Origin: a virus
Reading direction: 5' to 3' (one strand)
DNA length: 64,000 bases
Virus record (IMG/VR): IMGVR_UViG_3300043399_000587
Coordinates: 32,001 to 96,000 of that record
The position numbers were made by a program, and so were the translations under genes. Positions 15,963 to 43,670 of the stretch are shown here, one piece after another (within the stretch, counting starts at the first letter, position 1; every line of letters starts with the position of its first letter). The notes under the pieces were generated by a model. The model had not been told where the DNA came from. It made no database searches and saw only the letters and a list, made by a program, of their open reading frames with translations.

Positions 15963-18902
15963 ATGGATTTCAAATCAATGTTACAACAGTTGAGCCAGTT
16001 AAGTGAGGCTACTAAAGAAACTGAAAAAGGTCGCATACACAAAGCTGATCCAGGTGGGTACGGTCGTAAGTTTGACACTGATGAAGAAGGTGATGAAAAT
16101 AAAGACGACAAGAAAAAAGAACCAGCAGTAAAGCGTGGGCGCGGTCGTCCTAAAAAGGGTGCTGATAGCGAAACTGGTCAAGTTGCAAAATATGATAATG
16201 CAAAGGCATTGCAAAGTTTTATGGTTGGTAATTTACCTAAAGGTAAATTGCCGGGTAAGCCAGGTAAAAAACACACGTTAAAGGACTGGGTCGAACAAAT
16301 AGAAGCAGAGTATGTTGCTGAAGCAGCTCCTGGACAGCAATTAACAGTTAAGCCAATGCCAGGAGCTGCTCAACTAGTAGATCCTTCAACACAAAGAGTT
16401 ATGGCAACAGGTGATGCGGCAGCCGTTAAGAATATACAAGGTGCAGTAGCACAGGGTAAAGTTCAAATGCGAGGCCCCGGTCCACAAGAAATGGCTGAAG
16501 AAGGTGATTATTCTGCTAAAAAAGCAAGAGCAGGAAAAGATATCGGTAAGCCAGGTAAGCAATTCAGTAAGATCGCTAAAAGCGCAGGTGAACGTTATGG
16601 TTCAAAGGCAGCAGGCGAACGTGTTGCAGGCGCTGTTCTTAAAAATCTAAGAAAAGCGGATGAAGGCGTTTCAGAAGCCTCAAAGAAGATTCCGGCAAGC
16701 AACAAACCAGTTAAGCCAGAAGATTTATATGTTTCACTAAAAGATATTCCAGCCAAAAAGCCGCGTGGACATACCCAATATGATCCCGCTAAAGAGTTTC
16801 CTGGGGTAAAAGCATTTAAAAAGCAAGGTGTGGCTGAAGGCTATTCACTGAAGAAAACTAATGTTGAAAAAACATTTCATCCAGGTGACCCAGAGGATTA
16901 CGGCAGTGTTGATATGACACGAAAAGATACGGATTACGAAATTATCAACAACAAAACAGGTCAAGTAGTAGGTACTGCGAGTTGGACTACTAATGATTAT
17001 TTTGGTCCAGGCGCACTAAAGATTACTATGAAGAATGGTGCCACACGCTGGATAGATATTTGGGAGCGTGAAAAAGGCAACCCACAAAGTGCTTTCAATC
17101 GCTTTGTGAAAGACCCAAAAACAGCCAAAAAATATAAAGAGCAAGGTGTGGCGGAAGCATCAAATGGTTTATATCAAAAAGCCATTCGCAAGTATGCCCA
17201 ACAAGTAGCAAATGATTATCTAGGCGGCGGAGACGAACATCTTTATGGTGCCAACAAGTTTGATGCTGAAATGTTTGGTGTAAGCCGAGAACAAGCAAAT
17301 AAAGACTTTAAGACATTGTTTAACATAATTGTACGTGCTCAAGCAGTAAAACAACGACAAGGTATGAAAGAGTCAGACACGGCAGAAAAAAAGAAAAATC
17401 CATGGAATGAAGGATATTGGGCAGGACATAGACAGGAAGATAGAGATTGCCCATATCCACCTGAGTCATCTGCCGCAGAATTCTGGGAACTTGGTTATTA
17501 TCAAGGCAACAAAGACAGAAAAGATGAGATGACAGGTCGTGTGATAGAAGCTGATATTCCATCTGATCAAATGGACATGGGTGCAGGCCTAGGTGCTGGA
17601 CGTAGTTCTAAAACTTTCGAAAGTACAAAAGCAAAACCAGATTTCTTAGATTTAGATAAAGATAAGAATAGAAAAGAGTCTATGAAAGATGCTGCTGCTC
17701 ACGCAAAACAAGGAAAGAAAAAGAAAATGAATGAAAGTTCACATAGACATTCTGCTGCTAGACTTATGGGCAAATCACATGCACTAGCAAAAGAAGGATA
17801 TAATTGCCGTTATGAAGATATGGATGAGGCAAGAGAATATCATGAAGGTTTCAAAGAAGGTTTGGACGAATGCTATGGACAAGGTGTGTATGAAATGGCA
17901 CCTTCGACCCCACCCATGACTATGGGCGGAATGGCAAATCAAGCTATGCCTGCAATGGAAGATGACATGGAAGAAGGTAATGCATTTACTGCTGCACTTG
18001 CAAGAACACCACGTGGCGGTGAGTTCAGTGTAGGCGGTAGATCATTTACTGATAGATCAGGATATGATGCAAAATTAGATGAATTAGCATTTGAAAGTTT
18101 AGATAACCAATTGAATGCATTATTAAATGAAGATGCTGTAGCAGAAGGCATGACTGTTTCTATAAGTAAAGGTCAACAAGGAATGCCTGATAGTGTTACA
18201 GTGTCAGCACAAGATAATGAAGCAGATGCATTGTTAGGTTTAATTAAACAAGCTGGTTTGGGTTTGTTCGGGGACGACCAACCCAATGGATATGAAGCTT
18301 CAGACGGGGATCAAGTTACATCTCATGGAGACATAAAAGTTGTAGGTGATCATGATGGTATGATGTCTTTGATTAAGAAAGTATCAGGTGGATCACAAGG
18401 TGATAGTGAAGACTATGCTGATGAAGAAGGTCACGAAGGTCATGATCACGCAGAAGATGAAGTATGCGATGACTGTGGTTCCGCAGACTGCCAATGTGAT
18501 GAAAAGGTAGATGAGGTTGAATCTTACGATCAAGAAGAAGAACAAGTAGCTGAAAATAATCCACCGGACAGTGACGCAGCCGAAACTACTGCAGATGAAA
18601 ATGCTGAAGCAGAAGAAGATATGGCTCTTGCCGCTACCAATGAAGGTGGTGATGGAAGTGAAGCCAGTGAAGAGGGCGAAGAACAAGTAACTGAATGGGC
18701 AAATGATGCAGGGAAAAGAGCAGAAGACTTTGATGATGAATCATTTAACACTGATATAGATTTTATTACAAAGGTAATTTCTGGTGGTTTAAACAAGCCA
18801 AAATCAACTGGTCAAACGACAGTACCCGTGGTTGCTAGTCAACATGATAGAATGGTAACACACGAATCTATTGCTGATTGGAAAAAATTAGCAGGATTGT
18901 GA
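15963..18902 (+). CDS. Large modular internal head/scaffold-like polyprotein
   Basis: AT-hook KRGRGRPKK; many (V/L/M)-x-E junctions including GVSE/QGVAE; acidic C-terminus ending LAGL. Confidence 0.6.
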   Translation: MDFKSMLQQLSQLSEATKETEKGRIHKADPGGYGRKFDTDEEGDENKDDKKKEPAVKRGRGRPKKGADSETGQVAKYDNAKALQSFMVGNLPKGKLPGKPGKKHTLKDWVEQIEAEYVAEAAPGQQLTVKPMPGAAQLVDPSTQRVMATGDAAAVKNIQGAVAQGKVQMRGPGPQEMAEEGDYSAKKARAGKDIGKPGKQFSKIAKSAGERYGSKAAGERVAGAVLKNLRKADEGVSEASKKIPASNKPVKPEDLYVSLKDIPAKKPRGHTQYDPAKEFPGVKAFKKQGVAEGYSLKKTNVEKTFHPGDPEDYGSVDMTRKDTDYEIINNKTGQVVGTASWTTNDYFGPGALKITMKNGATRWIDIWEREKGNPQSAFNRFVKDPKTAKKYKEQGVAEASNGLYQKAIRKYAQQVANDYLGGGDEHLYGANKFDAEMFGVSREQANKDFKTLFNIIVRAQAVKQRQGMKESDTAEKKKNPWNEGYWAGHRQEDRDCPYPPESSAAEFWELGYYQGNKDRKDEMTGRVIEADIPSDQMDMGAGLGAGRSSKTFESTKAKPDFLDLDKDKNRKESMKDAAAHAKQGKKKKMNESSHRHSAARLMGKSHALAKEGYNCRYEDMDEAREYHEGFKEGLDECYGQGVYEMAPSTPPMTMGGMANQAMPAMEDDMEEGNAFTAALARTPRGGEFSVGGRSFTDRSGYDAKLDELAFESLDNQLNALLNEDAVAEGMTVSISKGQQGMPDSVTVSAQDNEADALLGLIKQAGLGLFGDDQPNGYEASDGDQVTSHGDIKVVGDHDGMMSLIKKVSGGSQGDSEDYADEEGHEGHDHAEDEVCDDCGSADCQCDEKVDEVESYDQEEEQVAENNPPDSDAAETTADENAEAEEDMALAATNEGGDGSEASEEGEEQVTEWANDAGKRAEDFDDESFNTDIDFITKVISGGLNKPKSTGQTTVPVVASQHDRMVTHESIADWKKLAGL
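16824..17159 (+). repeat. Direct-repeat pair CAAGGTGTGGC(T/G)GAAG flanking a 106-codon in-frame cassette
   Basis: caaggtgtggctgaag at 16824 and caaggtgtggcggaag at 17142. Confidence 0.8.
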
Positions 18903-18918
18903 TATTCTAATATCATTT

Positions 18919-18947
18919 TAGCCCGACTATAGTCGGGCTATTTTTTT
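18919..18947 (+). terminator. Intrinsic terminator
   Basis: Perfect inverted repeat TAGCCCGACT/AGTCGGGCTA followed by T7. Confidence 0.85.
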
Positions 18948-18999
18948 GGCTATATCGTTTACGTTAAAACGATAAATACTTAATAAGGTGACATAAAAC

Positions 19000-21723
19000 A
19001 TGGCGCAACAAAATATAGACTTCGGTACCTTTCCTGATGATCCAGATGCAGATGCGATACGAACGGCATTTCAGAAAGTACAACAAAACTTTACAGAAAT
19101 TTATAATGGTTTCGCCGGGGGATCCGTCGTATCTGTTAACAGGACTCCGGGCGCAGGCATAACGGTAAGTTCACCAACCGGTAACGTTATCATTACAGCA
19201 AATATAGCTTGTGTTCAAGTGCACACAAGTACGTTAAGTATTGGCCGTGATTCTAATGGATCACAAGATACATCTATTACTTCTAGCTCACAAACACTTT
19301 GGATAGATTTACCAGCTACAATTGCAAACGTCACAAATATTAATATAACCGGACAATTAGCCGCATCCGGTATTTCAGGGTACACCGGTGTATTAGGTAA
19401 TTTAACAGTTTCAGGTACTATTAATACAGGTAATCTAAGCGCCACAAGTAATATTAGTGGCGGTAGTGGAGTATTTGGTAATTTAACAATAACAGGTAAT
19501 GTAACATCATCTGGTAATCTTGTTGTAACAGGTGTTGCAAACTTAATCAACGCCAGCAACGTTTCATTAGGTGCTGTAGGTAACGTGCGTATTACTGGTG
19601 GTTCTGCCAATCAATTCTTAAAAACAAATGGTGCAGGTACTTTAGTTTGGGATGATCCAGGAAACTTTTCGGGATTTAGCGGATATAGTGGTTGGAGTGG
19701 TATATCGGGATTCACCGGCGTAAGTGGATTTAGTGGAACATCAGGAGTAAGTGGTTGGAGTGGTGCAAGTGGTAGGTCAGGATGGAGTGGCACTAGTGGT
19801 TGGAGTGGTACTTCAGGTATATCCGGATGGAGTGGTGTTACTGGTGTAAGTGGATTCAGCGGTACAACAGGTATATCAGGTACTACTGGTGTAAGTGGTT
19901 TTAGTGGCATAAGCGGATGGAGTGGTGTTACTGGTGTAAGTGGCTTTAGTGGCACAACTGGTGTTTCTGGAACTACCGGTGTAAGTGGCTTTAGTGGCAT
20001 AAGCGGATGGAGTGGTGTTACTGGTAGATCAGGATGGAGCGGTACTTCAGGATTCACCGGTGTAAGTGGATTTAGTGGCACTTCAGGATGGTCAGGTACC
20101 ACTGGTGTAAGTGGTTTAAGCGGCACATCGGGTATTAGTGGTTGGAGTGGTGTATCAGGTATCAGTGGAACTTCCGGTACCACAGGGGTGAGTGGATTTA
20201 GTGGTATATCAGGTACAAGTGGTATATCAGGTACATCTGGATTCACCGGGGTATCAGGTTGGAGCGGTATATCAGGTATATCAGGTACTACTGGAGTATC
20301 CGGAACTTCTGGCTGGAGCGGTATAAGTGGACAATCAGGCACATCAGGATGGTCAGGTGCTACAGGTATATCAGGATGGAGTGGTACAACTGGTATAAGT
20401 GGTACTACAGGTGTAAGTGGTAGATCAGGATGGAGTGGCTTTAGTGGCTTTAGTGGTATTAGCGGATTCAGTGGTATTAGCGGATTTAGTGGTATATCAG
20501 GAACAACAGGTATTAGTGGATTTAGTGGTACTAGTGGCCGTTCAGGATATTCAGGTCAGTCAGTATTACTTTCGGGCTCTGTTGCTAATTCAACCTTATT
20601 ACCAACAGGTACTCCGTCAGGTACGTTATATCTCGTATTAAATGCAGGTGGTGGATATAATGCAGGAGACGGAGCTATCTCAGATGGTGCAAATAACTGG
20701 ACTAACGTAGGACCTATTCAAGGGCCATCTGGATTTAGCGGAGCCTCAGGAAGTTCAGGTGTAAGCGGATGGTCGGGTACTAGTGGAACATCAGGTACTA
20801 CAGGCGTAAGTGGATTCAGTGGTACTTCAGGCACAACCGGTGTAAGTGGATTTAGTGGTAGATCAGGATTTAGCGGTTCAGGAGTAAGTGGTTGGAGTGG
20901 CTTTAGTGGTTGGAGTGGCAGTGGTATAAGTGGATTTAGTGGCACTTCAGGATGGTCAGGTACTACAGGCGTAAGTGGATTTAGTGGCACTTTAGGCACA
21001 ACCGGTGTAAGTGGATTTAGTGGTACTTCAGGTACTACTGGTGTAAGTGGCTTTAGTGGCACAACTGGTGTTTCTGGAACTACTGGTGTAAGTGGATTTA
21101 GTGGCACAACTGGTGTTTCTGGAACTACTGGTGTAAGTGGATTTAGTGGTTCAAGTGGTACTACAGGTGTAAGCGGATTTAGTGGTAGATCAGGATTTAG
21201 CGGTTCAGGAGTAAGTGGTTGGAGTGGCTTTAGTGGTTGGAGTGGCTGGTCTGGAACTAGTGGTGCTTCAGGAGCAAGCCCAACTAGTATAAGTAACGGT
21301 ACAAGTAATGTATCAGTCGCACTGAATAGTATTGTTACCGTTGGTATTAGTGGCATCGCTAATGTAACTTCATTTGGACCTAGTGGTTTAACGATTAACG
21401 AATATGTCATGTACTCTGTACAAACAGGTATATCAGCAGCAGGCACAACACAAGGCACAGCCACACCATTAGGAAACATAATGAATATTGTTAATACTGT
21501 ATCCTCAGGAGCCAATGGAGTTGTGTTGCCAGCAGCTTCAGCAGGTATGATACTATATATTACGAACTCTAGTGCCAACACATTAAATGTATTCCCTGCT
21601 AGCGGCGCAGCAATTAATTCTGGAGCAACTAATTCTGCCCTATCACAGGGTCCCGGCGCAACTCTACAATTTATAGCACCAACTACAACACAATGGTACT
21701 CAGTTGGTGCTACATATGCATAA
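19000..21723 (+). CDS. Collagen-like tail/capsid fibre protein with Gly-X-Ser/Thr repeats
   Basis: QNIDFGTFPDD..AD.IRTAFQKV N-terminus typical of fibre/baseplate attachment; long Gly-every-third-residue tract. Confidence 0.75.
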   Translation: MAQQNIDFGTFPDDPDADAIRTAFQKVQQNFTEIYNGFAGGSVVSVNRTPGAGITVSSPTGNVIITANIACVQVHTSTLSIGRDSNGSQDTSITSSSQTLWIDLPATIANVTNINITGQLAASGISGYTGVLGNLTVSGTINTGNLSATSNISGGSGVFGNLTITGNVTSSGNLVVTGVANLINASNVSLGAVGNVRITGGSANQFLKTNGAGTLVWDDPGNFSGFSGYSGWSGISGFTGVSGFSGTSGVSGWSGASGRSGWSGTSGWSGTSGISGWSGVTGVSGFSGTTGISGTTGVSGFSGISGWSGVTGVSGFSGTTGVSGTTGVSGFSGISGWSGVTGRSGWSGTSGFTGVSGFSGTSGWSGTTGVSGLSGTSGISGWSGVSGISGTSGTTGVSGFSGISGTSGISGTSGFTGVSGWSGISGISGTTGVSGTSGWSGISGQSGTSGWSGATGISGWSGTTGISGTTGVSGRSGWSGFSGFSGISGFSGISGFSGISGTTGISGFSGTSGRSGYSGQSVLLSGSVANSTLLPTGTPSGTLYLVLNAGGGYNAGDGAISDGANNWTNVGPIQGPSGFSGASGSSGVSGWSGTSGTSGTTGVSGFSGTSGTTGVSGFSGRSGFSGSGVSGWSGFSGWSGSGISGFSGTSGWSGTTGVSGFSGTLGTTGVSGFSGTSGTTGVSGFSGTTGVSGTTGVSGFSGTTGVSGTTGVSGFSGSSGTTGVSGFSGRSGFSGSGVSGWSGFSGWSGWSGTSGASGASPTSISNGTSNVSVALNSIVTVGISGIANVTSFGPSGLTINEYVMYSVQTGISAAGTTQGTATPLGNIMNIVNTVSSGANGVVLPAASAGMILYITNSSANTLNVFPASGAAINSGATNSALSQGPGATLQFIAPTTTQWYSVGATYA
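19666..21275 (+). repeat. 9-bp-period coding repeat (G-X-S/T)n in two blocks
   Basis: Repeated agtggt/tcagga/ggattt units; non-repeat spacer at ~20560-20720. Confidence 0.9.
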
Positions 21724-21735
21724 GAAAGGTGATAT

Positions 21736-22359
21736 ATGGTAACATTAGAATTATTACAAACAATATGCCCTAAAACTAAGAAAACAATCTTAGAAGGGTA
21801 TGTAGAACCATTAAACACAGTGGGACGATATTATGAAATGTTTGACAATCCTAAACGAATTGCAGGTTTTTTGGCACAAATAGCACATGAGTCAGGTGGT
21901 TTCAACGCAACTATCGAAAATTTAAATTACAGTGCTAAAGGACTAATGACGACATTTAGAAAATATTTCCCTACAGAAGAACTAGCAAAACAGTATGAGC
22001 GTAAACCGCAAATGATTGCTAATCGAGTATACGCAAACCGTATGAAAAACGGAGATGAAGCTAGCGGAGATGGGTGGAAGTTTCGTGGTCGAGGATTAAT
22101 ACAATTGACCGGGCGTGATAATTATACAAAATTTGCTGCCTCACTTGATATGGATATAGAAAGTACTATTGCATATTTAGAAACACCAAACGGTGCAGTT
22201 GCAAGTGCTGGCTGGTTTTGGGACAACAACAAGTTAAACCAATACTGTGATCGTGATGATTTTGTAACATTAACAAAAAGAATTAATGGTGGTACAATTG
22301 GATTGGCAGACAGACAACATCATTATCATTTAGCATTGAAACATTTGGGCATACATTAA
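21736..22359 (+). CDS. Endolysin, glycoside hydrolase family 19 (chitinase-like)
   Basis: FLAQIAHESGG, ENLNYS, RGRGLIQLTGRDNY, TKRINGG. Confidence 0.92.
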   Translation: MVTLELLQTICPKTKKTILEGYVEPLNTVGRYYEMFDNPKRIAGFLAQIAHESGGFNATIENLNYSAKGLMTTFRKYFPTEELAKQYERKPQMIANRVYANRMKNGDEASGDGWKFRGRGLIQLTGRDNYTKFAASLDMDIESTIAYLETPNGAVASAGWFWDNNKLNQYCDRDDFVTLTKRINGGTIGLADRQHHYHLALKHLGIH

Positions 22360-22360
22360 C

Positions 22361-24874
22361 ATGGCGCAACCTATATGGAATACCCCTGCAGGTTCTATAG
22401 GCACCTTTCCATCAGAAGTGCCTGTGTTGTTTGCTTTATCTGCTACAGCAGTTTTACCGGCCGTATCACTAACATATGCTATTATTAGTGGTAATCTACC
22501 AGCCGGTTTACTAATGAATGAAAATGGTATTATAAATGGAACTCCTTTGTTAGTAACTGGGGAAACCAATTCAACGTTTGTGGTTCGTATTACTGATAAT
22601 TATGGTAACATACGGGATAGAACATTTAGTATGACTGTAACAGGGTATGCAATCCCTTCATTTACTACATCTCCGGGAACTATATTAAGTACAAACGATA
22701 GTGTTTGGGTGAGTACACAAATAGCATATGACAATCCTAGTCCTAATAATCCCGTTACTATAACAGTATTAGAAGGATCATTACCTCCTGGATTAGAAAT
22801 AAATGAAAATGGATTAATCAGAGGATATGCTGACCCACCTACAGTAACTGTAACAGTTCCTGCAGTATCTACTGCAGCTACTGTCACAGAAACAACCAAT
22901 ATTATAACTTGCTTAAGCACTACCGGGTTTACGGTAGGTCGTCCTGTTACATTTAGCGGTACTGTTATGTTTGGTGGATTAGAAGAAAATGTAACATATT
23001 ACATAAAATCTGTAATTAACAGCACTAGTTTTACGATAAGTTCTACCCCCAATGGTTCTACATTTATATTAAGCAGTGGTACTGGATTTATGACTATTAA
23101 TTTACCCGCAATTTCTACGGGTCAACCAACAATAAGAACGTATAATTTCACACTACAACTCAATAGCCCATTAGGAGGAGGAATCGGCACATATTCAATA
23201 ACCGTAATAAATCAAAATACTCCCGCAAGTCAAGGTGGACCTGGTTTTCCAGCAAATACTAGGGTACCCGCAATATTGAATACACGTCCTGAAACTTTTA
23301 CTATTAACAACGATAATTCATATTATGGATATTATGTGCTACCACCTAATGATAGTAATTATAACACATATCCACCATCAATTCCAGCATTCATAGGAAC
23401 AATTCAAAGTGATAATTATTTTGCTTTTAAAATAATAGGTAAAGATTTTGACAATAACGGACTAACATATCAATATGCCGGACTGCCATTAGGTTTAACA
23501 GGTGATCCTTCGACAGGTTGGATAACTGGGACACCTTTTATATCTACTGAAGGTATAAATCAATATTCGTTCAGTGCATCAGTGTATAAAACTGCTAACC
23601 CATCTATAGCATCTCCGTTTATCAATTTTTCATTTAATTTGGCTAATACCATTACAGGCTTAATCACTTGGGTTACCCCTAACAATTTAGGTACACTTTT
23701 CAACGGTACTATAAGTACTAAAAGCGTTTTAGCCACATCTGATGTTTCACTACGTTATAGGGTAACTAGTGGTTTATTACCTCCCAATTTAACATTGTTA
23801 GATAGTGGTGAAATAACAGGATATGTTGCCAATCAACCCACATCAGAGCTTTTACCGCTGAATGCAGAAACAACCTTCAAATTTACAATTCAAGCGTACT
23901 CTCCTGAGTATCCCATTATTGTTTCAGAAAAAGAATTTACACTTACTATAATTCAAGCCTATACACAACCAACTGACATTTTGTATATCAAAGCAACTCC
24001 TAGTATTGCTGATAGAGAAATTATTAATACTTTGTTAAATAACGAAACATTAATACCTTATAATTATCTATATAGACCAAACGATGTTTATTTCGGTAAA
24101 GCAACCGAAGTAATTTACGAACACGCATTTGGAATATATGCAAGTGATATTGATGAATATATCGCAGCAGTGACAAAAAATCATTACTGGAGAAATATTA
24201 CTTTAGGTGAGTTAAAAACAGCACAAGCAAGAGATGAAAATGGTCAAATTATCTATGAAGTTGTTTACAGTCAAGTAATTGACAATTTACAGAATCCCCA
24301 AGGAGTCAGTGTAGCTCAAGAAATCACTTGGCCAAGACCGATTAATTTGTTTTTAGGTCCATGGTATACGAGTGTAACCAATATCTATACAAGTTATGAA
24401 GACATATTAGGACAAGAATATTATACTAGTTTATCTTCTGGCTTTGTAAGACAACTATATCCTAACAGTCTATTCAATATGCGTAAAAGAGTAGGTCAAG
24501 TATTGGGGCAAGAGTTTGATAGTACACTATTACCAAAATGGATGACTAGCCAACAAGAAAACGGTAGTACCTTAGGATATACTCAGGCTTGGGTAATTTG
24601 TTATACTAAACCAGGATATGCGGAAATTATTAAAAACAACATAAACACATTATGGTTAAAACCAGAAGGTACACCGTATACACTCAATCAAATTAACTTT
24701 AAGATTGATAGGTTTTCAGTTAACAAGAGTATTACATATAACTATGATAAAAATACAAGTCCTCCTGCTTGGACAGGGTTACCTAGTGCTACACCCGTGC
24801 CAAATCCGTTAGATAGTAAAAATTTCTATGTACTGTTTCCTAGAAAAACTATTTTGCCCAATGAAACAGAATAA
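22361..24874 (+). CDS. Virion structural protein with putative Ig (He_PIG-like) domains
   Basis: Repeated G.LP.GL.L...G.I.G.P motifs. Confidence 0.7.
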   Translation: MAQPIWNTPAGSIGTFPSEVPVLFALSATAVLPAVSLTYAIISGNLPAGLLMNENGIINGTPLLVTGETNSTFVVRITDNYGNIRDRTFSMTVTGYAIPSFTTSPGTILSTNDSVWVSTQIAYDNPSPNNPVTITVLEGSLPPGLEINENGLIRGYADPPTVTVTVPAVSTAATVTETTNIITCLSTTGFTVGRPVTFSGTVMFGGLEENVTYYIKSVINSTSFTISSTPNGSTFILSSGTGFMTINLPAISTGQPTIRTYNFTLQLNSPLGGGIGTYSITVINQNTPASQGGPGFPANTRVPAILNTRPETFTINNDNSYYGYYVLPPNDSNYNTYPPSIPAFIGTIQSDNYFAFKIIGKDFDNNGLTYQYAGLPLGLTGDPSTGWITGTPFISTEGINQYSFSASVYKTANPSIASPFINFSFNLANTITGLITWVTPNNLGTLFNGTISTKSVLATSDVSLRYRVTSGLLPPNLTLLDSGEITGYVANQPTSELLPLNAETTFKFTIQAYSPEYPIIVSEKEFTLTIIQAYTQPTDILYIKATPSIADREIINTLLNNETLIPYNYLYRPNDVYFGKATEVIYEHAFGIYASDIDEYIAAVTKNHYWRNITLGELKTAQARDENGQIIYEVVYSQVIDNLQNPQGVSVAQEITWPRPINLFLGPWYTSVTNIYTSYEDILGQEYYTSLSSGFVRQLYPNSLFNMRKRVGQVLGQEFDSTLLPKWMTSQQENGSTLGYTQAWVICYTKPGYAEIIKNNINTLWLKPEGTPYTLNQINFKIDRFSVNKSITYNYDKNTSPPAWTGLPSATPVPNPLDSKNFYVLFPRKTILPNETE

Positions 24875-24898
24875 TAAATACTATATGGAAATTAATTT

Positions 24899-26182
24899 AT
24901 GAGCGCAATTAATACTAACGGAATAGATGTCAATTATCCTATCCCAGGACAAAATAACAGTTCGCAGGGATTTAGAGATAATTTTGCCAGTATAAAAACA
25001 AATTTGAATACTGCCGGCGACGAAATCTCTGACCTTCAAAATAAAGTAGTTGTCAAATCAGCACTAGATAACACAGTCATTAATAATGACATGGGAAATA
25101 CTTTAATTAGCAACTGTGCTACTAGAAGTTTCAGAGCAACAACATACAATCTTGGAAATGCACTTTCTGGCACTGTTGCGGTCGACGTAAGTTTAGGTGA
25201 TGTGCAATATGGCACTGTTGCGGGAAATGTTCAATTTACATTTGGTAATTGGGCACCTTACGGAACTCAAAGTAATGTCGAGTTACAGTTAGCAGTTAGT
25301 AATTCATCAGCAGTTGTTAGTTGGCCTGCAGAAGTTGTATCTTCCAATAATAATTTTGGATTGACCACTTTAGAAAATTATGGAGGATCAGCTGGGTCTG
25401 GTAATATAAGTGTACCATATGGTGTCACGCAACTAAATTATAGACTCAGTTCTACAGACTGTGGAAACACTATTATCATAGAGCCCATCAACAGGCCTAG
25501 ACAATCAACTCAACTACAACAACGCAATCCTGCTCCTACCGGCTATCAAGGTGATGTGGCAGGAACTGTAGCGTTAGGTGATACGTATGCTCAATTAGAT
25601 ATATCTAGTACAAATTCATCTGATTATTTTACTACAGGAAATACCTCACAGTTATACACTGATTTACCTATAGTATTTACAGGTGTGAGTATGGAAGCCA
25701 ACATTACTATTGGCACTACTTATTACGTTCGTAACGTGGTTTCTAGTACAAATTTTACAGTTTCATCTACCTTAGGCGGAGCCAACGTTAATTTAGCCGG
25801 CAATTCTAGCCCAACAAGTTCAATGTATGGAAATCCAGTATCATATGCGTATGTATGCACAGACACATATAACTCCACAGCATACAGTAAAACTGTTACT
25901 GATACTACAACAAGTACTAATGTAATAACCCTTAATAATACTACGAGTTTGACATTAAATTCTCCTATCGTATTTTCAGGAACTACGTTTGGTGGAATTG
26001 TTGCAGGGGTAGTTTATTACATAAAATCTATTCCAAGCGGTACTACAATAACTGTTAGTCGTTCTAGAACAAATGGTGTTGCAGATTCCACAGTACTCTT
26101 GACTACTGCTAGTGGTAGTTGTTCAGCTACATCATATGTTGGTTCGGACATATGGAAAAGACTAACACTAAATGCATGGTGA
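24899..26182 (+). CDS. Baseplate/tail-fibre-associated structural protein
   Basis: YPIPGQNNSSQGFRDNF N-terminus, beta-rich body, WKR..L..W C-terminus. Confidence 0.65.
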   Translation: MSAINTNGIDVNYPIPGQNNSSQGFRDNFASIKTNLNTAGDEISDLQNKVVVKSALDNTVINNDMGNTLISNCATRSFRATTYNLGNALSGTVAVDVSLGDVQYGTVAGNVQFTFGNWAPYGTQSNVELQLAVSNSSAVVSWPAEVVSSNNNFGLTTLENYGGSAGSGNISVPYGVTQLNYRLSSTDCGNTIIIEPINRPRQSTQLQQRNPAPTGYQGDVAGTVALGDTYAQLDISSTNSSDYFTTGNTSQLYTDLPIVFTGVSMEANITIGTTYYVRNVVSSTNFTVSSTLGGANVNLAGNSSPTSSMYGNPVSYAYVCTDTYNSTAYSKTVTDTTTSTNVITLNNTTSLTLNSPIVFSGTTFGGIVAGVVYYIKSIPSGTTITVSRSRTNGVADSTVLLTTASGSCSATSYVGSDIWKRLTLNAW

Positions 26183-26193
26183 TAAATATTTAG

Positions 26194-31583: not shown

Positions 31584-32213
31584 ATGAAGAATAAAACCGC
31601 AGACAATTTTTTTGACGATATTGACTTTGTAAGTATTATAAGCAACGTCAAGGGTATCATGACCAGTGATGGTTCTATGTCTACATTATTGGATTTTGAG
31701 CGTGTGCTAGACGAAGCAGATTTATACGCTTTTAAGAATTGGATCTATGGGGAACTAGTTCAAGGTCCGGATTCAGGTAGATATTCAGTAACATGCACAT
31801 TCATGTGGCCATATAAATTAATGCCTGATCCTAGTGGTGTGAAACGTCTAGCATCAATTGGATGTAGCATATCTTTTGCTAAAGGTAAAATAAAAGTTCC
31901 CATTGAAGTTAAAAACTATGATGACTTTGTGCAAGGAACTAGATATCCTAAAGGTGTTGAGAAAAAAGTTTGGTTTGTACAGATTGAAGTGCCCAAGGCA
32001 TTAATGAACGAAATCAAAGAAGGTTCTATCGATTTAGCTGATCAAACTATCGACTTAGATGATATTGAAACAGCATACGAAGAAGATTTAGATAAAGAAA
32101 ATACTCAGCAATCTGAACAAGATAATCAACAAGGAGCAGGAATGGCTCCAATGGATATGAGTGCGGGTATGCCTGCACTGCCAGCAGCACCGGGGGCGGC
32201 ACCGCCGATGTAA
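31584..32213 (+). CDS. Hypothetical late protein
   Basis: LDFERVLDE..YAFKNW motif; late promoter. Confidence 0.7.
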   Translation: MKNKTADNFFDDIDFVSIISNVKGIMTSDGSMSTLLDFERVLDEADLYAFKNWIYGELVQGPDSGRYSVTCTFMWPYKLMPDPSGVKRLASIGCSISFAKGKIKVPIEVKNYDDFVQGTRYPKGVEKKVWFVQIEVPKALMNEIKEGSIDLADQTIDLDDIETAYEEDLDKENTQQSEQDNQQGAGMAPMDMSAGMPALPAAPGAAPPM

Positions 32214-33367: not shown

Positions 33368-33370
33368 ATA

Positions 33371-33399: not shown

Positions 33400-33405
33400 C
33401 AATAT

Positions 33406-34206
33406 ATGGACCACTATACAACGTTGGGCGTAGCTAAAAACGCTACACCCGATGAAATCAAAAAAGCATATAGAAAATTAGCAAGTAAGCACCACCCAGA
33501 CAAGGGTGGTGATACTTCCATGTTCCAAAAAATAGAAGAAGCATATCGCATTTTAAGTGATCCAGAAAAAAAAGCCCATTATGACAACCCAAATTCACAT
33601 GGGTTGCCGCCCAATTTCGGTGACATGTTTACTGGAGAGTTTGATGCTAGAGATATATTTTCTCATATCTTTTCTCAGCGCAGTGGTAACCCATTTCAAA
33701 ATAAATCTAGTAGACAAATTTTTAGGACACAAATGTCTGTGTCTTTAGAAGATGTATACAACGGAGCTACGCATGTTCTAAAATTACAAACTCCAATGGG
33801 TTTGAAGATGATGAATATTGATATTCCTAAAGGTTTGCCCGATGGATCACACTTGCGTTTCGACAATGTGTTAGATAATAATACTTCCTTAATTGTTGAA
33901 TTTAAAGTGATGCCAAACCTTAGATTTGAACGCAGAGGAAATGATTTATATTGCAATCAAAAGATATCTGTGTTGGATCTTATAGTAGGCACTAAGATTA
34001 ATTTTCAAACGATATCGGGAAAAACATTTGAAGTTTCTGTTCCACCTAAAACACAACCGTATATACAGCTAAAAATTACTGGGCAAGGAATGCCAATACC
34101 TAATTCTAATCTATACGGAGACCAAATACTTTTACTTAAACCGTTCATGCCTGATACAATAGCAAACGAAATAACTGAAAGTATTTTGCGTTCCAGAACT
34201 AATTAA
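33406..34206 (+). CDS. dnaJ: DnaJ/CbpA-type co-chaperone (no Zn finger)
   Basis: J-domain with HPD (KHHPDKGG) plus DnaJ C-terminal domain. Confidence 0.88.
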   Translation: MDHYTTLGVAKNATPDEIKKAYRKLASKHHPDKGGDTSMFQKIEEAYRILSDPEKKAHYDNPNSHGLPPNFGDMFTGEFDARDIFSHIFSQRSGNPFQNKSSRQIFRTQMSVSLEDVYNGATHVLKLQTPMGLKMMNIDIPKGLPDGSHLRFDNVLDNNTSLIVEFKVMPNLRFERRGNDLYCNQKISVLDLIVGTKINFQTISGKTFEVSVPPKTQPYIQLKITGQGMPIPNSNLYGDQILLLKPFMPDTIANEITESILRSRTN

Positions 34207-34226
34207 ATACCTAAAAGGAAATATAA

Positions 34227-36491
34227 GTGACTAATTCACCGGAAATTGAAAGCATCATTGAACAAGCTATTGCAGAGGCAAGGCAAAGAAAACATCAGTA
34301 CTGTACAGTAGAACATTTGCTACTGGCACTTATCAATCATAAACCTTTTAAGAAGTGTTTAGTAAGTTTTGGAGCTGATGTTTCTACCTTCATTGATGAA
34401 GTTGCAGCGTACTTAAATGGGCTTCACGCAATTGAAAGTAAAGATCCCGAAGCTATACCGCGCAAAACTAATTCACTAGAACGTGTAATGAATCGCAGCA
34501 TTACGCAAGTACTGTTTACCGGTCGCAGGCAAGTAACTACGATTGATTTGTATCTTAGTATTGCTGCTGAGGGCAACAGCCATGCACATTACTTTTTACT
34601 TAAGTATGGAATACACAAAACTGAATTCGTTCAGCATTGGCAAAAAAATTATAAAGGTCAAGAATATACAGGTACTCTAACTGAAAACCAAGCAGATGAT
34701 ATTCTTGAAGAATTTACAACCAATCTTACTAAACTAGCAGAGAATAATAAATTAGAACCTGTAATTGGGCGTAGTAAAGAACTAGAAGATATAATTAACA
34801 TACTTGCTAAACGATTCAAATCAAACGTACTGATGGTGGGTGACCCGGGTGTTGGTAAAACTGCCATTGTAGAAGGTCTAGCACAAGCTATTAACAATGG
34901 AGAAGTACCTGAATTTCTAAATGGCTATCAATTATTTTCATTAGAAATTGGTAGCTTACTTGCGGGTAGTAAATACCGTGGCGATTTTGAAGAAAAGGTC
35001 AAGGCAGTATTAGAAGCATTGAATACAAAAAAGAAAGCAATATTATTTATTGATGAAGCGCACACCATGCAAGGTGCAGGTGGTTCTACCAATGGAAGTG
35101 TTGATTTTGCTAATATGATTAAACCCGCGATTACTAAGGGTACACTCAAGGTTATTGCCAGCACTACTTGGGAAGAGTTTTATGAAAGTTTTGAAAAGGA
35201 TCGTGCATTGATGCGTCGATTCTATCGTATTGGTATTGATGAACCTAGTCATGATTCTACTATTCGTATTCTAAGTGGACTAGCTGCACGATTGAATGAA
35301 TTTCATGAAGTCAATATTACGGATGAAGCAATTAAGGCTGCAGTAGAAAGTTCTAATAGATACATTCATGATAGGAAAAATCCTGATAAGAGTATTGATT
35401 TGTTGGACGCAGCATGTGCAAAGCAACGTGTTGCAATGAATAAAGATGCTATCATTACTAAAGAACTTATCTATGAACAAGTTGAAAAATATACCGGTGT
35501 TCCTGCTGACAAGTTGAAGGGTGATAACTTAGAACGAATCAGTACACTTGATGTTAATATCAATGGTAAATTATATGGTCAAGATGAAACTGTACAGCAA
35601 GTGTTAGACCGAGTGTATGTTAGCTTTGCTGGAATCGGGAATGAAACTAAGCCAATGGCTAGCTTCTTGTTCTTGGGCCCCACAGGTACAGGTAAAACAG
35701 AATTGGCTAAGTTGTTAAGTAAGAATCTCGACATGCCACTGCTCAAGTATGATATGAGTGAATATAGTGAAAAACACAGCGTATCAAGCTTGATCGGCCC
35801 GCCCCCTGGTTATGTAGGATTCGGTGATAGCCAAGTTCAGGGTGGTCGCTTGATTAGTGACTTGAGTAAGAACCCTCATAGTATCATGTTGTTCGATGAA
35901 GTTGAAAAGGCCCATCCTGATATCTTCAACATCTTTTTACAAATGCTTGACGAGGGAACTATCACTGGTAGTAATGGTAAAAAAGTTAACTGTAAGAACA
36001 CTATCATTATCATGACTAGCAATTTGGGTAGTAGTGATAGTGAAAAAAATAATATTGGATTCGGTGCTCAAGAAAAGACCGGAGAAGATGACAAGGCATT
36101 AAAAGAATTTTTCAAACCAGAGTTTAGAAACCGACTAGATTTAGTTTGTAAGTTCAATAAACTCGACATGCTTTCTATTAAAAAGATTGTTATCAAGTTT
36201 ACAGAAGACCTCAAGAAATCATTATTGGATAAGCATAATATTACATTAACATTATCCGAACCAGTAATCGAATACTTAGCAGAAAAGGGTTATGATAACA
36301 AAATGGGCGCAAGGCCATTGTCTAGGAAAATAGATGAATTGATTAGGGTTCCATTAAGCAAACGTATCCTTTTTGAGCAAATCAAGAATGCCAATATTCT
36401 TGCAACTCTCAACGAAAATATGATAGAATTTGTCGTTACAAACAAGGTATCTGCAAAGGTAAACCAAAATGGGATTATTGAAGTCAGTTGA
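34227..36491 (+). CDS. clpA: ATP-dependent Clp protease ATPase subunit ClpA-like
   Basis: Clp-N (EHLLLAL); two AAA modules GDPGVGKT and GPTGTGKT; IGF loop; GARP. Confidence 0.9.
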   Translation: MTNSPEIESIIEQAIAEARQRKHQYCTVEHLLLALINHKPFKKCLVSFGADVSTFIDEVAAYLNGLHAIESKDPEAIPRKTNSLERVMNRSITQVLFTGRRQVTTIDLYLSIAAEGNSHAHYFLLKYGIHKTEFVQHWQKNYKGQEYTGTLTENQADDILEEFTTNLTKLAENNKLEPVIGRSKELEDIINILAKRFKSNVLMVGDPGVGKTAIVEGLAQAINNGEVPEFLNGYQLFSLEIGSLLAGSKYRGDFEEKVKAVLEALNTKKKAILFIDEAHTMQGAGGSTNGSVDFANMIKPAITKGTLKVIASTTWEEFYESFEKDRALMRRFYRIGIDEPSHDSTIRILSGLAARLNEFHEVNITDEAIKAAVESSNRYIHDRKNPDKSIDLLDAACAKQRVAMNKDAIITKELIYEQVEKYTGVPADKLKGDNLERISTLDVNINGKLYGQDETVQQVLDRVYVSFAGIGNETKPMASFLFLGPTGTGKTELAKLLSKNLDMPLLKYDMSEYSEKHSVSSLIGPPPGYVGFGDSQVQGGRLISDLSKNPHSIMLFDEVEKAHPDIFNIFLQMLDEGTITGSNGKKVNCKNTIIIMTSNLGSSDSEKNNIGFGAQEKTGEDDKALKEFFKPEFRNRLDLVCKFNKLDMLSIKKIVIKFTEDLKKSLLDKHNITLTLSEPVIEYLAEKGYDNKMGARPLSRKIDELIRVPLSKRILFEQIKNANILATLNENMIEFVVTNKVSAKVNQNGIIEVS

Positions 36492-37206
36492 CAACGTGCC
36501 TGGAATCAATTATATTGAATTCCGCGAAAGAAATTATTGGGATAAATTCAAGTATCGAGCTAGACTAACAGTGCCCGGTGCAAGATATACCCATAACTTG
36601 AAGTCGGTTGATGATTGGTTAAAACGTGCTAAAAATTTTAGACACATTAGACACGAAATGTTGGATTCTAAGACTATATTAGAAAATACACCGATCATTG
36701 AAAAGTTCTTGAAATTTAAACGTAAAGTTAAGGCTTCCAAAGAAATAATTGTGCGAGTAGAGGGCGATGTAATTGCAATCTTCTCAAATGATTTATCCGA
36801 GTTGCACAACTTGCAATCTTGGGGAAACATAGACATTGATTTTACCGAAATACAAATTACCAAAACACAAATTTCGCCATCTGGACATTTTGCAGGTGTC
36901 AAATACTTTGTACGTAAACCTAAAAGGCAATATAGGGTTTATCTAACGTCTAAACGTGTAGATGTTAAGGTTATGGAAGAACTTGTTGATCTGTTTAAGA
37001 GGTCTAAGCAATTTTATCCTAGTCCAGGTTTAACTTCTTGGTTGGAATTTAGACATAAATCTACTGTTTATAGAGGTAGGTATTGTAGCTCAGCTTATTT
37101 TATTGAGTATGACGAGGAATCGTATATTACATTACTGGCATTAACACACGGAGAATTGCTTGGTCGTAGATTCAAACTTGAAAAACGACCAGATACTACT
37201 GAATAA
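36469..37206 (+). CDS. Hypothetical protein
   Basis: 245-aa ORF overlapping clpA end. Confidence 0.65.
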   Translation: MGLLKSVDNVPGINYIEFRERNYWDKFKYRARLTVPGARYTHNLKSVDDWLKRAKNFRHIRHEMLDSKTILENTPIIEKFLKFKRKVKASKEIIVRVEGDVIAIFSNDLSELHNLQSWGNIDIDFTEIQITKTQISPSGHFAGVKYFVRKPKRQYRVYLTSKRVDVKVMEELVDLFKRSKQFYPSPGLTSWLEFRHKSTVYRGRYCSSAYFIEYDEESYITLLALTHGELLGRRFKLEKRPDTTE

Positions 37207-37236
37207 AGATAAATACTCTATTAATGGAGTATTTTC

Positions 37237-37407
37237 ATGGCAAAAATTGTCGAAGATGTATTAGTAGTAAAATTTAGCAAGATAGTTAAGGATAGTGAGA
37301 GCGAGAAACAAGTCCTCGCTAGTCACGAAATTCAACAAGCGCTGGAACAAGTAGCCCAAGAATTAGTGGGTGAAAGTGTGATAGTAGAGGTTATGGGGGC
37401 AGAATAA
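37237..37407 (+). CDS. Small hypothetical late protein (56 aa, MAKIVEDVLVVKFSK...)
   Basis: Not in ORF track; late promoter, GGAG RBS, TAATG overlap with next gene. Confidence 0.7.
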   Translation: MAKIVEDVLVVKFSKIVKDSESEKQVLASHEIQQALEQVAQELVGESVIVEVMGAE

Positions 37408-37793
37408 TGTCTCAAACCACAACACTAATAATGTTGCCACAAACTACCTATCTTAATCCAGGCAACTCAGCACCTTATACAGTAACAGGTAATAGTCAAC
37501 CTGCTGCCGCCTATTATTTAGGTAATCAAGATTTACAAACAGTCAACATTAAAGTTACAAATTGCACTGGTAATATTGTGTTGGAAGCTAGTTTAGCTAC
37601 TAATCCTACATCAAATGATTGGTTTAAAGTCTATCAATTAGAAGCAAACGCAAACGCAGTAGCCAACACCGCGCCCCAAATAGCTAGTAATGCTAGTGTT
37701 TACACTAATGTACAAGGTAATTTTGTTTTCATGCGAGCTAAGGTAGAAAATTTCCAAGGTGGCACTGTTCAGTTTGTTAAGTTAAGTTATTGA
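37407..37793 (+). CDS. Hypothetical beta-rich (structural?) protein
   Basis: ORF in late operon. Confidence 0.65.
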   Translation: MSQTTTLIMLPQTTYLNPGNSAPYTVTGNSQPAAAYYLGNQDLQTVNIKVTNCTGNIVLEASLATNPTSNDWFKVYQLEANANAVANTAPQIASNASVYTNVQGNFVFMRAKVENFQGGTVQFVKLSY

Positions 37794-37851
37794 GTTGTAG
37801 TTTTATCGGACCTCAACTGACACTTGCCTGTCACCGTGACTAAATAATTAT

Positions 37852-38709
37852 ATGAGTAAAACAATTGTAATACAACCGGGCGGCTATCACCCATTTCATG
37901 CAGGTCATTATGCATTATACAAGTCTGCATTAGAAGCCTTTCCCAATGCCGATGTTTATGTAGCTGCAACTAATGATCAAAAAGCTAGACCGTTTCCATT
38001 TAGTATTAAAGAAAAATTAGCTAAACTAGCAGGTGTGGCACCTGGTCGTTTTATTCAAGTTAAGAGTCCTTTTAAAGCGGAAGAAATCACTAGTCAATAC
38101 AATCCAAATGAAGATGTATTGATATTTGTACGTAGCGAAAAAGATCGCAACGAACAACCAAAGCCAGGTGGAATAAAGAAAGACGGCAGCCCGGCATATT
38201 TTCAGCCATGGACAGGTAAAAATTTAAAACCATTTAGTCAACACGCATATATTTATTATCTACCTACAGTAGAATTTGGTCCTGGTATTAAGAGTGCTAC
38301 TGAAATTCGTAATGCATGGCCTAATTTAGACGATAGACAAAAAACCGCAATGGTTATGAGTCTTTATCCAAAGACTCAAAAGAATCCTACACTTGCAAAA
38401 AACGTTGTTGAGTTGTTGAATGTCGGTATGAGTGGTGAACTAGCTGAGTCTATGAACAGCCAAGATCAGGTCAATTTCATAGACCAAGAAACAGAAAAAA
38501 TTCTTAAGTATGCTAAGGCACACTACCCACAGTCTGCATCAAAACAACAAGCGTTCGTCATGTATGTATTACGTGCATTAAAACATAGCGAAGAAGATGA
38601 TGACGATCAGGACAAAAAAATCAATAATCTTCAACGGGCTGTTAAAGATTTAGAAGCTAAAGTAAATTCACCATTGCATGAAAATAAAGACTATTTAGAT
38701 GAAGTATAA
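37852..38709 (+). CDS. HxGH nucleotidyltransferase (cytidylyltransferase-like) with C-terminal extension
   Basis: PGGYHPFHAGH and SATEIR motifs. Confidence 0.75.
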   Translation: MSKTIVIQPGGYHPFHAGHYALYKSALEAFPNADVYVAATNDQKARPFPFSIKEKLAKLAGVAPGRFIQVKSPFKAEEITSQYNPNEDVLIFVRSEKDRNEQPKPGGIKKDGSPAYFQPWTGKNLKPFSQHAYIYYLPTVEFGPGIKSATEIRNAWPNLDDRQKTAMVMSLYPKTQKNPTLAKNVVELLNVGMSGELAESMNSQDQVNFIDQETEKILKYAKAHYPQSASKQQAFVMYVLRALKHSEEDDDDQDKKINNLQRAVKDLEAKVNSPLHENKDYLDEV

Positions 38710-38762
38710 TTTTTTGGTAACAAAAATATCATCTAAATAATTTTAACTTTATTGAGGAATGC

Positions 38763-39629
38763 ATGTCAGAAGATAACCAAGAAAAAACTGTTCCAGTGGA
38801 ACAATTACAAGAGATTGCTGAACAACAGCAACAACAAGCACAACCTGGCCAGGTGCAAGTAAATGTAGATTTTCTAAGAACCACACGTGTTCACATAGCA
38901 ATGCCCTGTTATGGTGGTATGCTAACTGAATCTACCTTTATGAGTTTTATCAAATGGGCTAATACAGCAAGACAACTAGGTATCGATTGGACGTTGGAAA
39001 CAATGGTCAACGAAAGCTTGATTAGTAGGGCACGCAATACATTAACAGCTAAGTTTTTAGATATGCCCGATGCTACTCATTTGTTCTTTGTCGATGCTGA
39101 TATTGGTTGGGAACCATGGCATTTATTGGTACTTATAAACCGTGATGTTGATGTTATCGGTGGACTTTATCCCATGAAGACTATGCCTATTAAGTGGGTT
39201 GTTAACGGATTTGAAGGGGCAGAAGAAGGACCTGATGGATTACAAGAAGTAAGCAAAGCCGGTACAGGATTTTTGCTAATGAAAAAACATGTCTTTCACA
39301 AATTGAACAGTCACCCTGCCGTGAAGCAGTATAAAAATGACATAGGACTTGATCCTAAATTTGACCAGTATTTGAAAACATATTTTGACACTGCAGTACG
39401 TCAAAATCGTTATTATTCAGAAGATTGGACCTTCTGTGAGAACTGGCGTGATCTAGGAGGAAAAATTTATGTTGATAAACGTGTTCTACTACGTCACTCG
39501 GGAAGCTATGTATTCTGTATGGAGAATCAACAACATCTATTCAATACAATAGGACCCATGTACGTACAAGAAAGACGCAATCAAGGTTGCAAACTTCTTG
39601 ACAAAGATGGCAACGAAGTAGCACAATAA
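38763..39629 (+). CDS. Glycosyltransferase-like protein (GT-A fold)
   Basis: IAMPCYGG, ESLISRARN, FFVDADI (DxD), GTGFLL, SEDW.FC. Confidence 0.75.
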   Translation: MSEDNQEKTVPVEQLQEIAEQQQQQAQPGQVQVNVDFLRTTRVHIAMPCYGGMLTESTFMSFIKWANTARQLGIDWTLETMVNESLISRARNTLTAKFLDMPDATHLFFVDADIGWEPWHLLVLINRDVDVIGGLYPMKTMPIKWVVNGFEGAEEGPDGLQEVSKAGTGFLLMKKHVFHKLNSHPAVKQYKNDIGLDPKFDQYLKTYFDTAVRQNRYYSEDWTFCENWRDLGGKIYVDKRVLLRHSGSYVFCMENQQHLFNTIGPMYVQERRNQGCKLLDKDGNEVAQ

Positions 39630-39632
39630 ATC

Positions 39633-43670: not shown

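Follow-up and report, generated by a model that had tools for sequence, protein, structure and literature searches.

A short coding linker conserved at the DNA level and apparent module exchange in the polyproteins of an uncultured freshwater jumbo phage

Here we describe a short coding element, the linker, that recurs in frame within three genes of a 64,000-nucleotide stretch of viral DNA (the window), which runs from base 32001 to base 96000 of a viral contig of 124,789 bp (IMG/VR record IMGVR_UViG_3300043399_000587) that is rated 36% complete and has a GC content of 37.6%. The window encodes a long tail sheath, with its best matches, at 46-47% identity, in the jumbo phages Phosso, PA5oct and Atu_ph07, and along with it tail tube and head-closure proteins, a collagen-like fibre, a T4-type family B DNA polymerase, a Clp-like ATPase and a ferritin/Dps-like protein; the public runs that hold its DNA are labelled as freshwater, lake or aquatic metagenomes. 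The linkers belong to a T4-related jumbo phage of fresh water that has not been cultured. The three genes, which we call carriers 1, 2 and 3 (Table 1), encode polypeptides made of consecutive modules or cassettes, and an earlier note on this DNA labelled their products head polyproteins, a label that rests on gene context. Carrier 1 sits between the tail tube and head-closure genes on one side and the collagen-like fibre gene on the other. The T4 late-promoter motif TATAAATA is found three times against 9.7 expected, and never near the three carrier genes, a count that is uninformative.

The pattern AGGWGTGDCKGAR matches exactly six times in the window, always on the + strand and always in frame within the open reading frames (ORFs) 15963-18902, 41150/41183-42106 and 42111-43670, just where the earlier note had placed six G-V-x-E sites, and the spacings within the genes are the 318, 216 and 345 bp that it had given. 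About 0.01 matches would be expected, and six were reached in none of 100 shuffles; because the pattern was drawn up post hoc, the fixed core GGTGTGGCGGAA is the fairer test, and it has five copies in the contig, against none for the reversed control. The codons at these sites are rare ones, as had been claimed: valine is encoded by GTG at all six and the third codon is NCG at five (GCG, ACG, GCG, ACG and TCG) and GCT at one, whereas in the contig as a whole GTG makes up 12.6% of valine, GCG 7.6% of alanine, ACG 9.9% of threonine and TCG 4.9% of serine codons. By sequence, each of the six sites is a copy of a single linker, A-G-CAA-GGT-GTG-GCG-GAA-GG, which encodes the peptide Q-G-V-A-E-G.

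The sites had been described as three direct-repeat pairs, each enclosing one domain. The sites and their spacing hold up, but the private pairing does not, because decayed junctions are also found in the three carriers (GVSE at 16665, GMKE at 17361, RVIE at 17538 and GVGE at 41687) and three further perfect copies lie outside the window, in an open-ended ORF at the 5′ end of the same contig, whose modules have no relative among the loci we fetched. Each pair is thus two adjacent joints in an array of cassettes. At 17881-17895 (residues 640-644 of carrier 1) the conserved backbone reads QGVYE, encoded by CAA GGT GTG TAT GAA and found in the related locus L164 too; its DNA is linker-like, yet no cassette boundary lies there, and this may be a linker that has decayed or is just arising, or a coincidence.

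Table 1. Coordinates of the carrier genes, their cassettes and linkers, and neighbouring features (window coordinates, except those prefixed C1; aa, amino acids)
Feature	Position	Strand	Remarks
Six linker copies	16826-16838, 17144-17156, 41698-41710, 41914-41926, 42809-42821, 43154-43166	+	pattern match
Carrier gene 1, 979 aa	15963..18902	+	conserved N- and C-terminal backbone, variable centre with four cassettes
Decayed junction GVSE (GGC GTT TCA GAA)	16665..16676	+	left edge of cassette block; common to L164
Cassette A, 54 aa	16677..16838	+	ends in linker copy 16826-16838 (GVAE, GCT variant)
Cassette B, 106 aa	16839..17156	+	ends in linker copy 17144-17156
Cassette C1, 72 aa	17157..17372	+	ends in decayed junction GMKE
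Cassette C2, 59 aa, ribosome modulation factor-like	17373..17549	+	ends RVIE, then backbone ADIPSDQ
Carrier gene 2, 307 aa from ATG at 41183	41183..42106	+	leader MKINQIIINE, N-domain ending GGVGE, one cassette, tail
Linker copy GVTE, ACG GAG variant	41698..41710	+	pattern match; L005 has GVAE at this place
72-aa cassette	41711..41926	+	ends in linker copy 41914-41926
Basic C-terminal tail module, 59 aa	41927..42103	+	phrog_16759, phrog_25121
Carrier gene 3, 519 aa	42111..43670	+	leader MSNILRGLKE, then modules X, M1, GNAT-like, M3/M2, tail
Module M1, 90 aa, KWFKEKWVRFGPDGK...	42552..42821	+	ends in linker copy 42809-42821 (GVTE)
GNAT-like cassette, 115 aa	42822..43166	+	ends in linker copy 43154-43166 (GVSE)
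Modules M3/M2, zinc-ribbon-like, then ...KVWPSAYASGALV...	43167..43460	+	homology to modules elsewhere
Neighbouring leader-bearing genes, leaders ending [LI]-x-E	44134..47463	+	44134 MKIVELLNE, 44796 MRALEFITE, 46345 MRATEFITE
ADP-ribosyltransferase gene, reminiscent of T4 Alt	45709-46323	+	PF03496, E 1e-13, 51.5 bits
Fourth polyprotein, cut by contig end, upstream of window	G000:C1:2-886		three perfect QGVAEG linkers
RecA/UvsX-type gene, this contig, downstream of fourth polyprotein, outside window	C1:3079-3840		

The linker is widespread in viral DNA. At least 120 stretches in IMG/VR contain its exact 17-mer, and among the 120 loci listed 32 have two to four copies, 150 of the 155 copies stand in an open frame, and the mean GC content is 41%. 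The same 17-mer is also found in at least 120 bacterial stretches in 596 billion bases, with one copy in each of those listed and a mean GC content of 62%; we rejected these matches as background, being single matches in GC-rich genomes with none of the 120 loci holding more than one copy. In our set of 207 loci (1.66 Mb) the 12-base core has 330 copies, every one of which is read as G-V-A-E, and 323 of them lie in a frame that is open for 15 codons on either side, the other seven being located beside the end or start of an ORF. Conservation around the core extends only from about -5 to +14, and the flanks are unrelated.

What is kept at the linker appears to be the DNA and not merely the peptide. 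For an unbiased test of codon choice we used 87 loci that were fetched via protein similarity alone, and among their 100 distinct GVAE sites 69 have exactly GGTGTGGCGGAA, where codon usage predicts 0.57%; GTG stands at 84 of the sites and GCG at 86. Codon diversity at the Q-G-V-A-E positions of the linker is 0-0.21, compared with 0.4-0.7 at the glycine, valine and alanine of conserved control peptides from the same genes. A second type of junction, I-L/M-K-G-L-x-x-E, shows normal codon diversity, and two V-x-E sites that are kept in six of six carrier 1 orthologues use ordinary codons. When homologous junctions are compared in pairs, the motif codons differ in 11-14% of cases and flank codons for identical residues in 25-29%. 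The constraint at nucleotide level that the earlier note suspected is therefore well supported by codon choice. A supposed second dialect of the linker, D-V-S/T/A-E, was discarded, as it amounts to scattered one-base variants without fixed DNA.

The second property of the linker is that the modules on either side of it differ between genes and between phages. The earlier note had expected cassettes to be gained, lost or replaced exactly at the motif, and the same cassette to turn up in different host genes; with the three carriers aligned to their orthologues, the content varies, the breaks fall in the linker, and both expectations are borne out. Four orthologues of carrier 1, in L081-L084 (671-791 aa in stop-to-stop frames), are without the block at about residues 232-545 and without GVAE. 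The close orthologue in L164 follows the window at about 95% DNA identity through cassette A up to the linker and is then unrelated, with one unrelated 113-aa cassette in place of B, C1 and C2, until the backbone resumes at ADIPSDQ in both, in L164 after GVAE. In L085-L087, B, C1 and C2 are met again, differently ordered, in polyproteins of 1145-1339 aa whose N-domain is homologous to that of carrier 2 and not to carrier 1. In carrier 2 itself, L005 has the same N-domain (91% identical) as far as GGVGE-GVAE and then two different cassettes, and L020 and L003 carry yet others. Carrier 3 of L005 reads M1-GVAE-M3, an empty site where the window has its GNAT-like cassette, and L001 has a different cassette of 57 aa at the same site. 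The GNAT-like cassette is found at about 98.5% DNA identity in L004, inside an unrelated ORF of 416 aa; by manual count there are five mismatches between the linkers, the identity starts and stops in both linkers, and the DNA outside is unrelated.

These examples are part of a larger pattern. Counting junctions in 149 loci gave 437 distinct ones, which hold 328 downstream and 346 upstream module families, and nearly all recurrent families have more than one partner: 58 of 62 upstream families join at least two downstream families, and 59 of 61 downstream families join at least two upstream families. Among junction pairs, 132 plus 153 agree in one flank only and five in both. Public runs were examined as Logan contigs, which drop rare variants. 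Contigs of X1, the likely source run, span carrier 2 across both linkers with 0 differences, and contigs of X3, from another study, bridge both GNAT-like junctions as in the window. In X4, from a third study, an L004-type continuation begins at 43167, the right edge of the GNAT-like cassette. Contigs of X3 and X4 stop matching the window at 41709, and in X5 the tail module of carrier 2 is preceded by a different sequence, with the change at 41914. Most loose contig ends in the public runs are not at linkers, and the gaps in X1's cover of the window are no evidence either way. From alignments of this kind, we consider it well supported that modules are gained, lost and replaced exactly at the linker, between genes and between phages.

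Two smaller observations belong here. A joint from 41709 to 41909 in X3, known from one contig with 21 letters on one side, was set aside as a sign of excision and is read as a replaced cassette. In L160, L113, L122, L142, L190, L206 and L111, ORFs either stop zero to six codons past a linker or run from a leader straight into one, and these look like terminal or 'empty' docking sites.

The cassettes themselves are a mixed company. Carrier 1, which begins MDFKSMLQQLSQLSE and has no match among GenBank phages by tblastn, bears the peptide GRGRPKKG. Its cassette A is 96% identical in L164 and is present in carriers of other types in L025 and L026, while cassette B closes a different carrier in L085, at 89.5% identity, and recurs in L159 at 83%. 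The earlier note called B a beta-rich unit; its predicted structure has five strands plus two helices, and the predicted fold has no match in the PDB at E <= 0.001. The counterparts of cassette C1 in L085, L086 and L087 have 79% identity to it and close with RRGVAE, and the homologues of C2 in the polyproteins of these loci end in RVAE. C2 matches the ribosome modulation factor family of Pfam (PF04957) at E 4.2e-5 with 24 bits, under the cut-off of 27.9, and has no match among PDB sequences; were the likeness true, a ribosome-hibernation-like module delivered by a phage would be unusual.

In carrier 2, the N-domain has homologues in the long polyproteins of L085 and L087, and the tail module matches phrog_16759 (E 3.2e-9) and phrog_25121, 'virion structural protein' (E 2e-7). 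The 72-aa cassette between them is an orphan: it has no relative in the fetched loci or in IMG/VR, among the longer proteins of a set of 5.8 billion it finds only itself, and its Atlas scores are at most 0.82 and serve as leads only. Carrier 3 belongs to a family with the common leader MS-x-I-(L/I/F)-K-G-(L/I) and a shuffled set of modules, of which M1 is present in 94 loci at a cover of at least 70% and matches the profiles phrog_23735 and phrog_727. Cultured cyanomyoviruses have homologues of M1, M2 and M3 in genes that lie between those of the terminase subunits, and there no GVAE linker joins them. For the 115-aa unit, which had been called a GNAT domain, there is a likeness of fold: the PDB matches to its AlphaFold model listed to rank 50 are all GNAT acetyltransferases, with a best E of 3.4e-4 and template modelling scores of about 0.5-0.57, for a model with a mean predicted local distance difference test score of 69.4 and predicted disordered ends. 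The family assignment is less firm, the best Pfam match being to Acetyltransf_7 at E 0.004 and 17.9 bits, under the cut-off of 27.

Some further features of these proteins may be recorded. An AT-hook-like motif, KRGRGRPKKG, occupies residues 57-66 of carrier 1 (16131-16160 region) and is kept in L081, L082 and L164, with KRGRGRPAKTG in L084; carrier 1 is otherwise very acidic towards its C-terminus. Directly behind a linker or leader, a twin-arginine-like signal (RRGFLKG, then an Ala/Gly-rich stretch) is seen at about 6020 in L022, in the carrier 3 homologue of L003 and at about 6043 in L103. The second internal junction that recurs in carrier 3 and its homologues, (E)-S-x-I-L/M-K-G-L-x-x-E, resembles the N-terminal leader of this very family, MS-x-I-L-K-G-L-x-E. 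Because of that resemblance, some modules may formerly have been separate leader-bearing genes that were fused in frame.

A peptide that joins modules might also be a place where they are parted. In T4, the prohead protease gp21 cleaves behind the sequence L/I-x-E, and residues 1-10 of IPIII make up the capsid targeting sequence (PMC9026906). It is plausible that the V-A-E of the linker would be cut after the glutamate by a gp21-type protease; in that case the modules would come apart within the head and enter the host with the DNA, as do the T4 internal proteins after losing their capsid targeting sequence. The predicted disordered ends of the GNAT-like cassette also count towards cutting. 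Profile searches of the Pfam/PHROG type matched no peptidase family in the three carrier proteins or their cassettes. In four of five large related records, a gp21-type protease gene (Peptidase_S77) stands beside gp22- and gp23-type genes.

The N-termini fit the same scheme. The 10-residue leaders of carriers 2 and 3 end in I-N-E and L-K-E, and carrier 1 has L-S-E at residues 13-15; the L/I-x-E leader pattern is a common one, present in 17 of the contig's 127 ORFs with 100 aa or more. A more specific leader, M-R/K-A-x-E-F-[ILV]-x-E, starts 80-90 distinct genes in loci L001-L207, whose products are diverse (66-626 aa) and whose codon diversity is ordinary; among 80 genes with a leader of the form M-R/K-A-x-E-F-x-x-E the residue at P3, the place of valine in V-A-E, is Ile in 52, Leu in 14 and Val in 12. 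The leader resembles the T4 targeting peptide, and on its sequence it looks like a capsid targeting sequence of this phage group. In 22 of 79 leader genes the body is homologous to a cassette that follows a linker, and in 17 of those 22 (two of the 17 being trivial self cases) the match begins no more than 12 residues from both boundaries. The same modules can thus have either the end of a leader or that of a linker as their N-terminal boundary, and the two are interchangeable. Just downstream of carrier 3, the leader-bearing genes at 44134-47463 provide context for a reading as cargo packed into the head. The ADP-ribosyltransferase gene among them also matches phrog_595, 'head maturation protease' (E 2.9e-6, profile positions 390-497 of 513 only), and was rejected as a peptidase, its Pfam match being to ADP-ribosyltransferase.

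We think it probable, on this evidence, that the linker joins independently folding modules of cargo polyproteins and serves both as the point at which modules are exchanged and as a site at which the prohead protease cuts.

How the modules would be exchanged is a matter of which recombination functions the phages possess. The earlier note had likened the sites to an integron and asked for a recombinase elsewhere in the genome. Among five records, this contig and four large related ones, three of the five being at least 97% complete, none matched the tyrosine recombinase family PF00589 or the serine recombinase family PF00239, in a search that covered these two known families and was positive in 14 and 12 of 14 control genomes, respectively, whereas all five have a RecA/UvsX-type gene, including this contig. 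Nor does the motif look like a recombinase site, for it has no palindrome or dyad symmetry, its flanks are not conserved and there is no second arm; within the core no crossover point can be placed, the mismatch rates being equal in both classes of pairs that share one flank. With neither integrase nor resolvase found while RecA/UvsX is present, an integron-like mechanism is therefore not supported. A precedent exists in the PeSL of T4-type phages, for which PMC2839356 describes shuffling by homologous recombination that needs less than 50 bp of homology and passes through mini-circle intermediates. In the case of the linker, the phage's own homologous recombination machinery would swap modules via linker homology, with the GC-rich core as a help, the 14-18 GC-rich bases being the sole homology between otherwise unrelated neighbours. 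Cassettes with the exact linker DNA would remain exchangeable, which may be why the silent positions are frozen. From the analysis as a whole, recombination over short homology is the likelier mechanism of exchange.

Several observations weigh against a linker that is both docking point and cutting site. The window's contig, 36% complete, has no match to the protease (PF03420) or the capsid protein (PF07068); one of the large records, G003, has protease and capsid genes and no copy of the core, and another, G004, has a single copy of the 17-mer and neither gene. At P3 the linker has valine in 400 of 437 junctions, against the printed L/I rule, and what we take to be the capsid-protein cut sites of the relatives, placed via the position of the T4 site, use leucine. 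For homologous recombination 14-18 bp is short; silent divergence in the linker is lower than in the flanks by only about twofold, and the junctions counted are not phylogenetically independent. No circular or excised form was seen, and the X1 contigs show no such joint, though contigs drop rare variants. The true orthologues L081-L084 are without a linker at the 'empty' place where cassettes would first have entered carrier 1, and no relative supports mobility of the 72-aa cassette.

The choice of valine also speaks for an alternative in which the linker is a flexible spacer that is never cut and the polyproteins act whole, possibly associated with the virion; in the homologues from cultured cyanophages the same modules follow one another with no GVAE between them, and the protease gene is absent from this contig fragment. 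But stand-alone genes start the same modules directly after an [ILV]-x-E leader, with valine at P3 in 12 of 80 leaders. The glutamate is invariant (by the definition of a junction), the variants at P3 are aliphatic or methionine (GMAE, GLAE, GIAE), and a mere spacer does not explain why several ORFs end right behind the linker, so that we regard an uncut spacer as unlikely, if worth keeping in mind. It is a good deal less probable that a dedicated sequence-specific enzyme, be it a recombinase, a nicking or homing-type nuclease or some other protein, moves the cassettes as in a true integron within ORFs. The retention of 14-18 bases in at least 120 viral stretches, with two to four copies in 32 of the 120 listed, goes beyond what exchange by homology needs, the copies within a gene are always direct repeats, and the authors of the PeSL study left a helper protein open (PMC2839356). 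Against such an enzyme stand the absence of Phage_integrase and Resolvase matches from the five records by a search that succeeded in the controls, a motif without dyad symmetry or conserved flanks, and the lack of a fixed crossover point in the core among pairs that share one flank. The fuller form of the idea, that an enzyme system recognises the linker and moves in-frame cassettes among genes and co-infecting phages, each insert gaining a head-protease site, seems equally improbable to us; if true, the phage population would draw on a common combinatorial library, with more than 300 mini-proteins that are injected.

Slightly less credible again is that the silent positions are fixed for a reason of RNA or translation, with swapping as a by-product, for instance by a ribosome pause at the rare GTG-GCG or at a Shine-Dalgarno-like AAGGUG / GGAAGG that lets the preceding module fold or be cut. 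The linker does use rare codons, has AAGG(U)G-like purine runs and is read in one frame in 330 of 330 copies; but many rare codons could cause a pause, yet one exact string is kept, no start codon stands at initiation distance behind the linker, and the other junction type and the N-terminal leaders show normal codon diversity. The window has no tRNA genes, which had been sought as an explanation of the rare codons. Finally, chance or an artefact of assembly, in which contigs are joined at a shared word, is scarcely conceivable. The single bacterial copies of the 17-mer are expectable in 596 billion bases, but six matches in the window against 0.01 expected are not of that kind, and the viral loci differ from the bacterial ones in their GC content and in their multiple copies (none of the 120 bacterial loci has more than one), and nearly all viral copies lie in an open frame. 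Assemblers usually work with words longer than the shared core, and independent Logan contigs reproduce carrier 2 (X1, without differences) and bridge both GNAT-like junctions (X3). The reading of the linker as a joint of cargo modules, exchanged there and cut there, is the one we prefer.

Mobile cassettes bounded by repeats are known from other systems. Integrons use the integrase IntI and structured attC sites to move promoterless whole genes, and in shufflons the recombinase Rci inverts segments between inverted repeats. The linker system is like both in its repeat-bounded cassettes and in a payload that varies while the kind of site stays fixed. It is unlike both in that the search turned up no recombinase of this sort, that its repeats are short, lack structure and all point the same way, and that what they bound are protein modules in frame. 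To our knowledge, no integrase is known for PeSL or for the linker. In PeSL (PMC2839356), a short conserved DNA motif likewise flanks variable modules, the differences between relatives end in the motif, and exchange is attributed to the phage's own recombination on short homology. But PeSL is an intergenic promoter plus terminator hairpin that moves whole genes, whereas the linker is coding, in frame, 14-18 bases long and without a hairpin; mini-circles are a feature of PeSL, and the evidence for the linker comes from contigs only.

On the side of the proteins, the closest likeness is to the T4 cargo IPI, IPII, IPIII and Alt, which PMC9026906 describes as small and fast-evolving, with a leader of about 10 residues that ends in aliphatic-x-Glu, is cut after the glutamate, and as ejected with the DNA. 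The leaders here (MKINQIIINE, MSNILRGLKE and MRA-x-EF-I-x-E) are of the same kind, and a gene for an Alt-like ADP-ribosyltransferase adjoins. T4 cargo proteins are separate genes with their own leaders, whereas here modules stand in one frame, with an internal repeated site of frozen DNA at which we infer cutting. Polyvalent proteins, as presented in PMC5512222, likewise have many unrelated effector-type domains per polypeptide, and the prediction is that they are packed, travel with the DNA and are set free by proteolysis; the carriers, too, combine several domains without relation to each other in a single phage protein, among virion or late genes. Polyvalent proteins are said to carry the embedded peptidase MPTase (same source), whereas no peptidase domain was found in the three carriers, and the word 'linker' is absent from the text of that paper, which thus describes no conserved DNA linker, whereas the joints here are one frozen sequence. 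No description of the linker motif was found in the literature searched, which was judged by title and abstract, the supplements of PMC5512222 and PMC2839356 lying outside the search. We class the system as linker-mediated modular shuffling combined with head cargo that would be processed in the manner of T4.

If this is true, one element of 18 bases would be read at two levels, as a docking point in DNA and as a peptide cut by a protease. Docking would let phages trade modules without breaking reading frames, and this would explain the large and fast-changing stock of DNA-delivered proteins in giant T4-related phages. The linker-mediated modular evolution of the Botstein type would gain an example inside genes, and there would be a natural design rule for loading several cargo proteins into heads of the T4 type.

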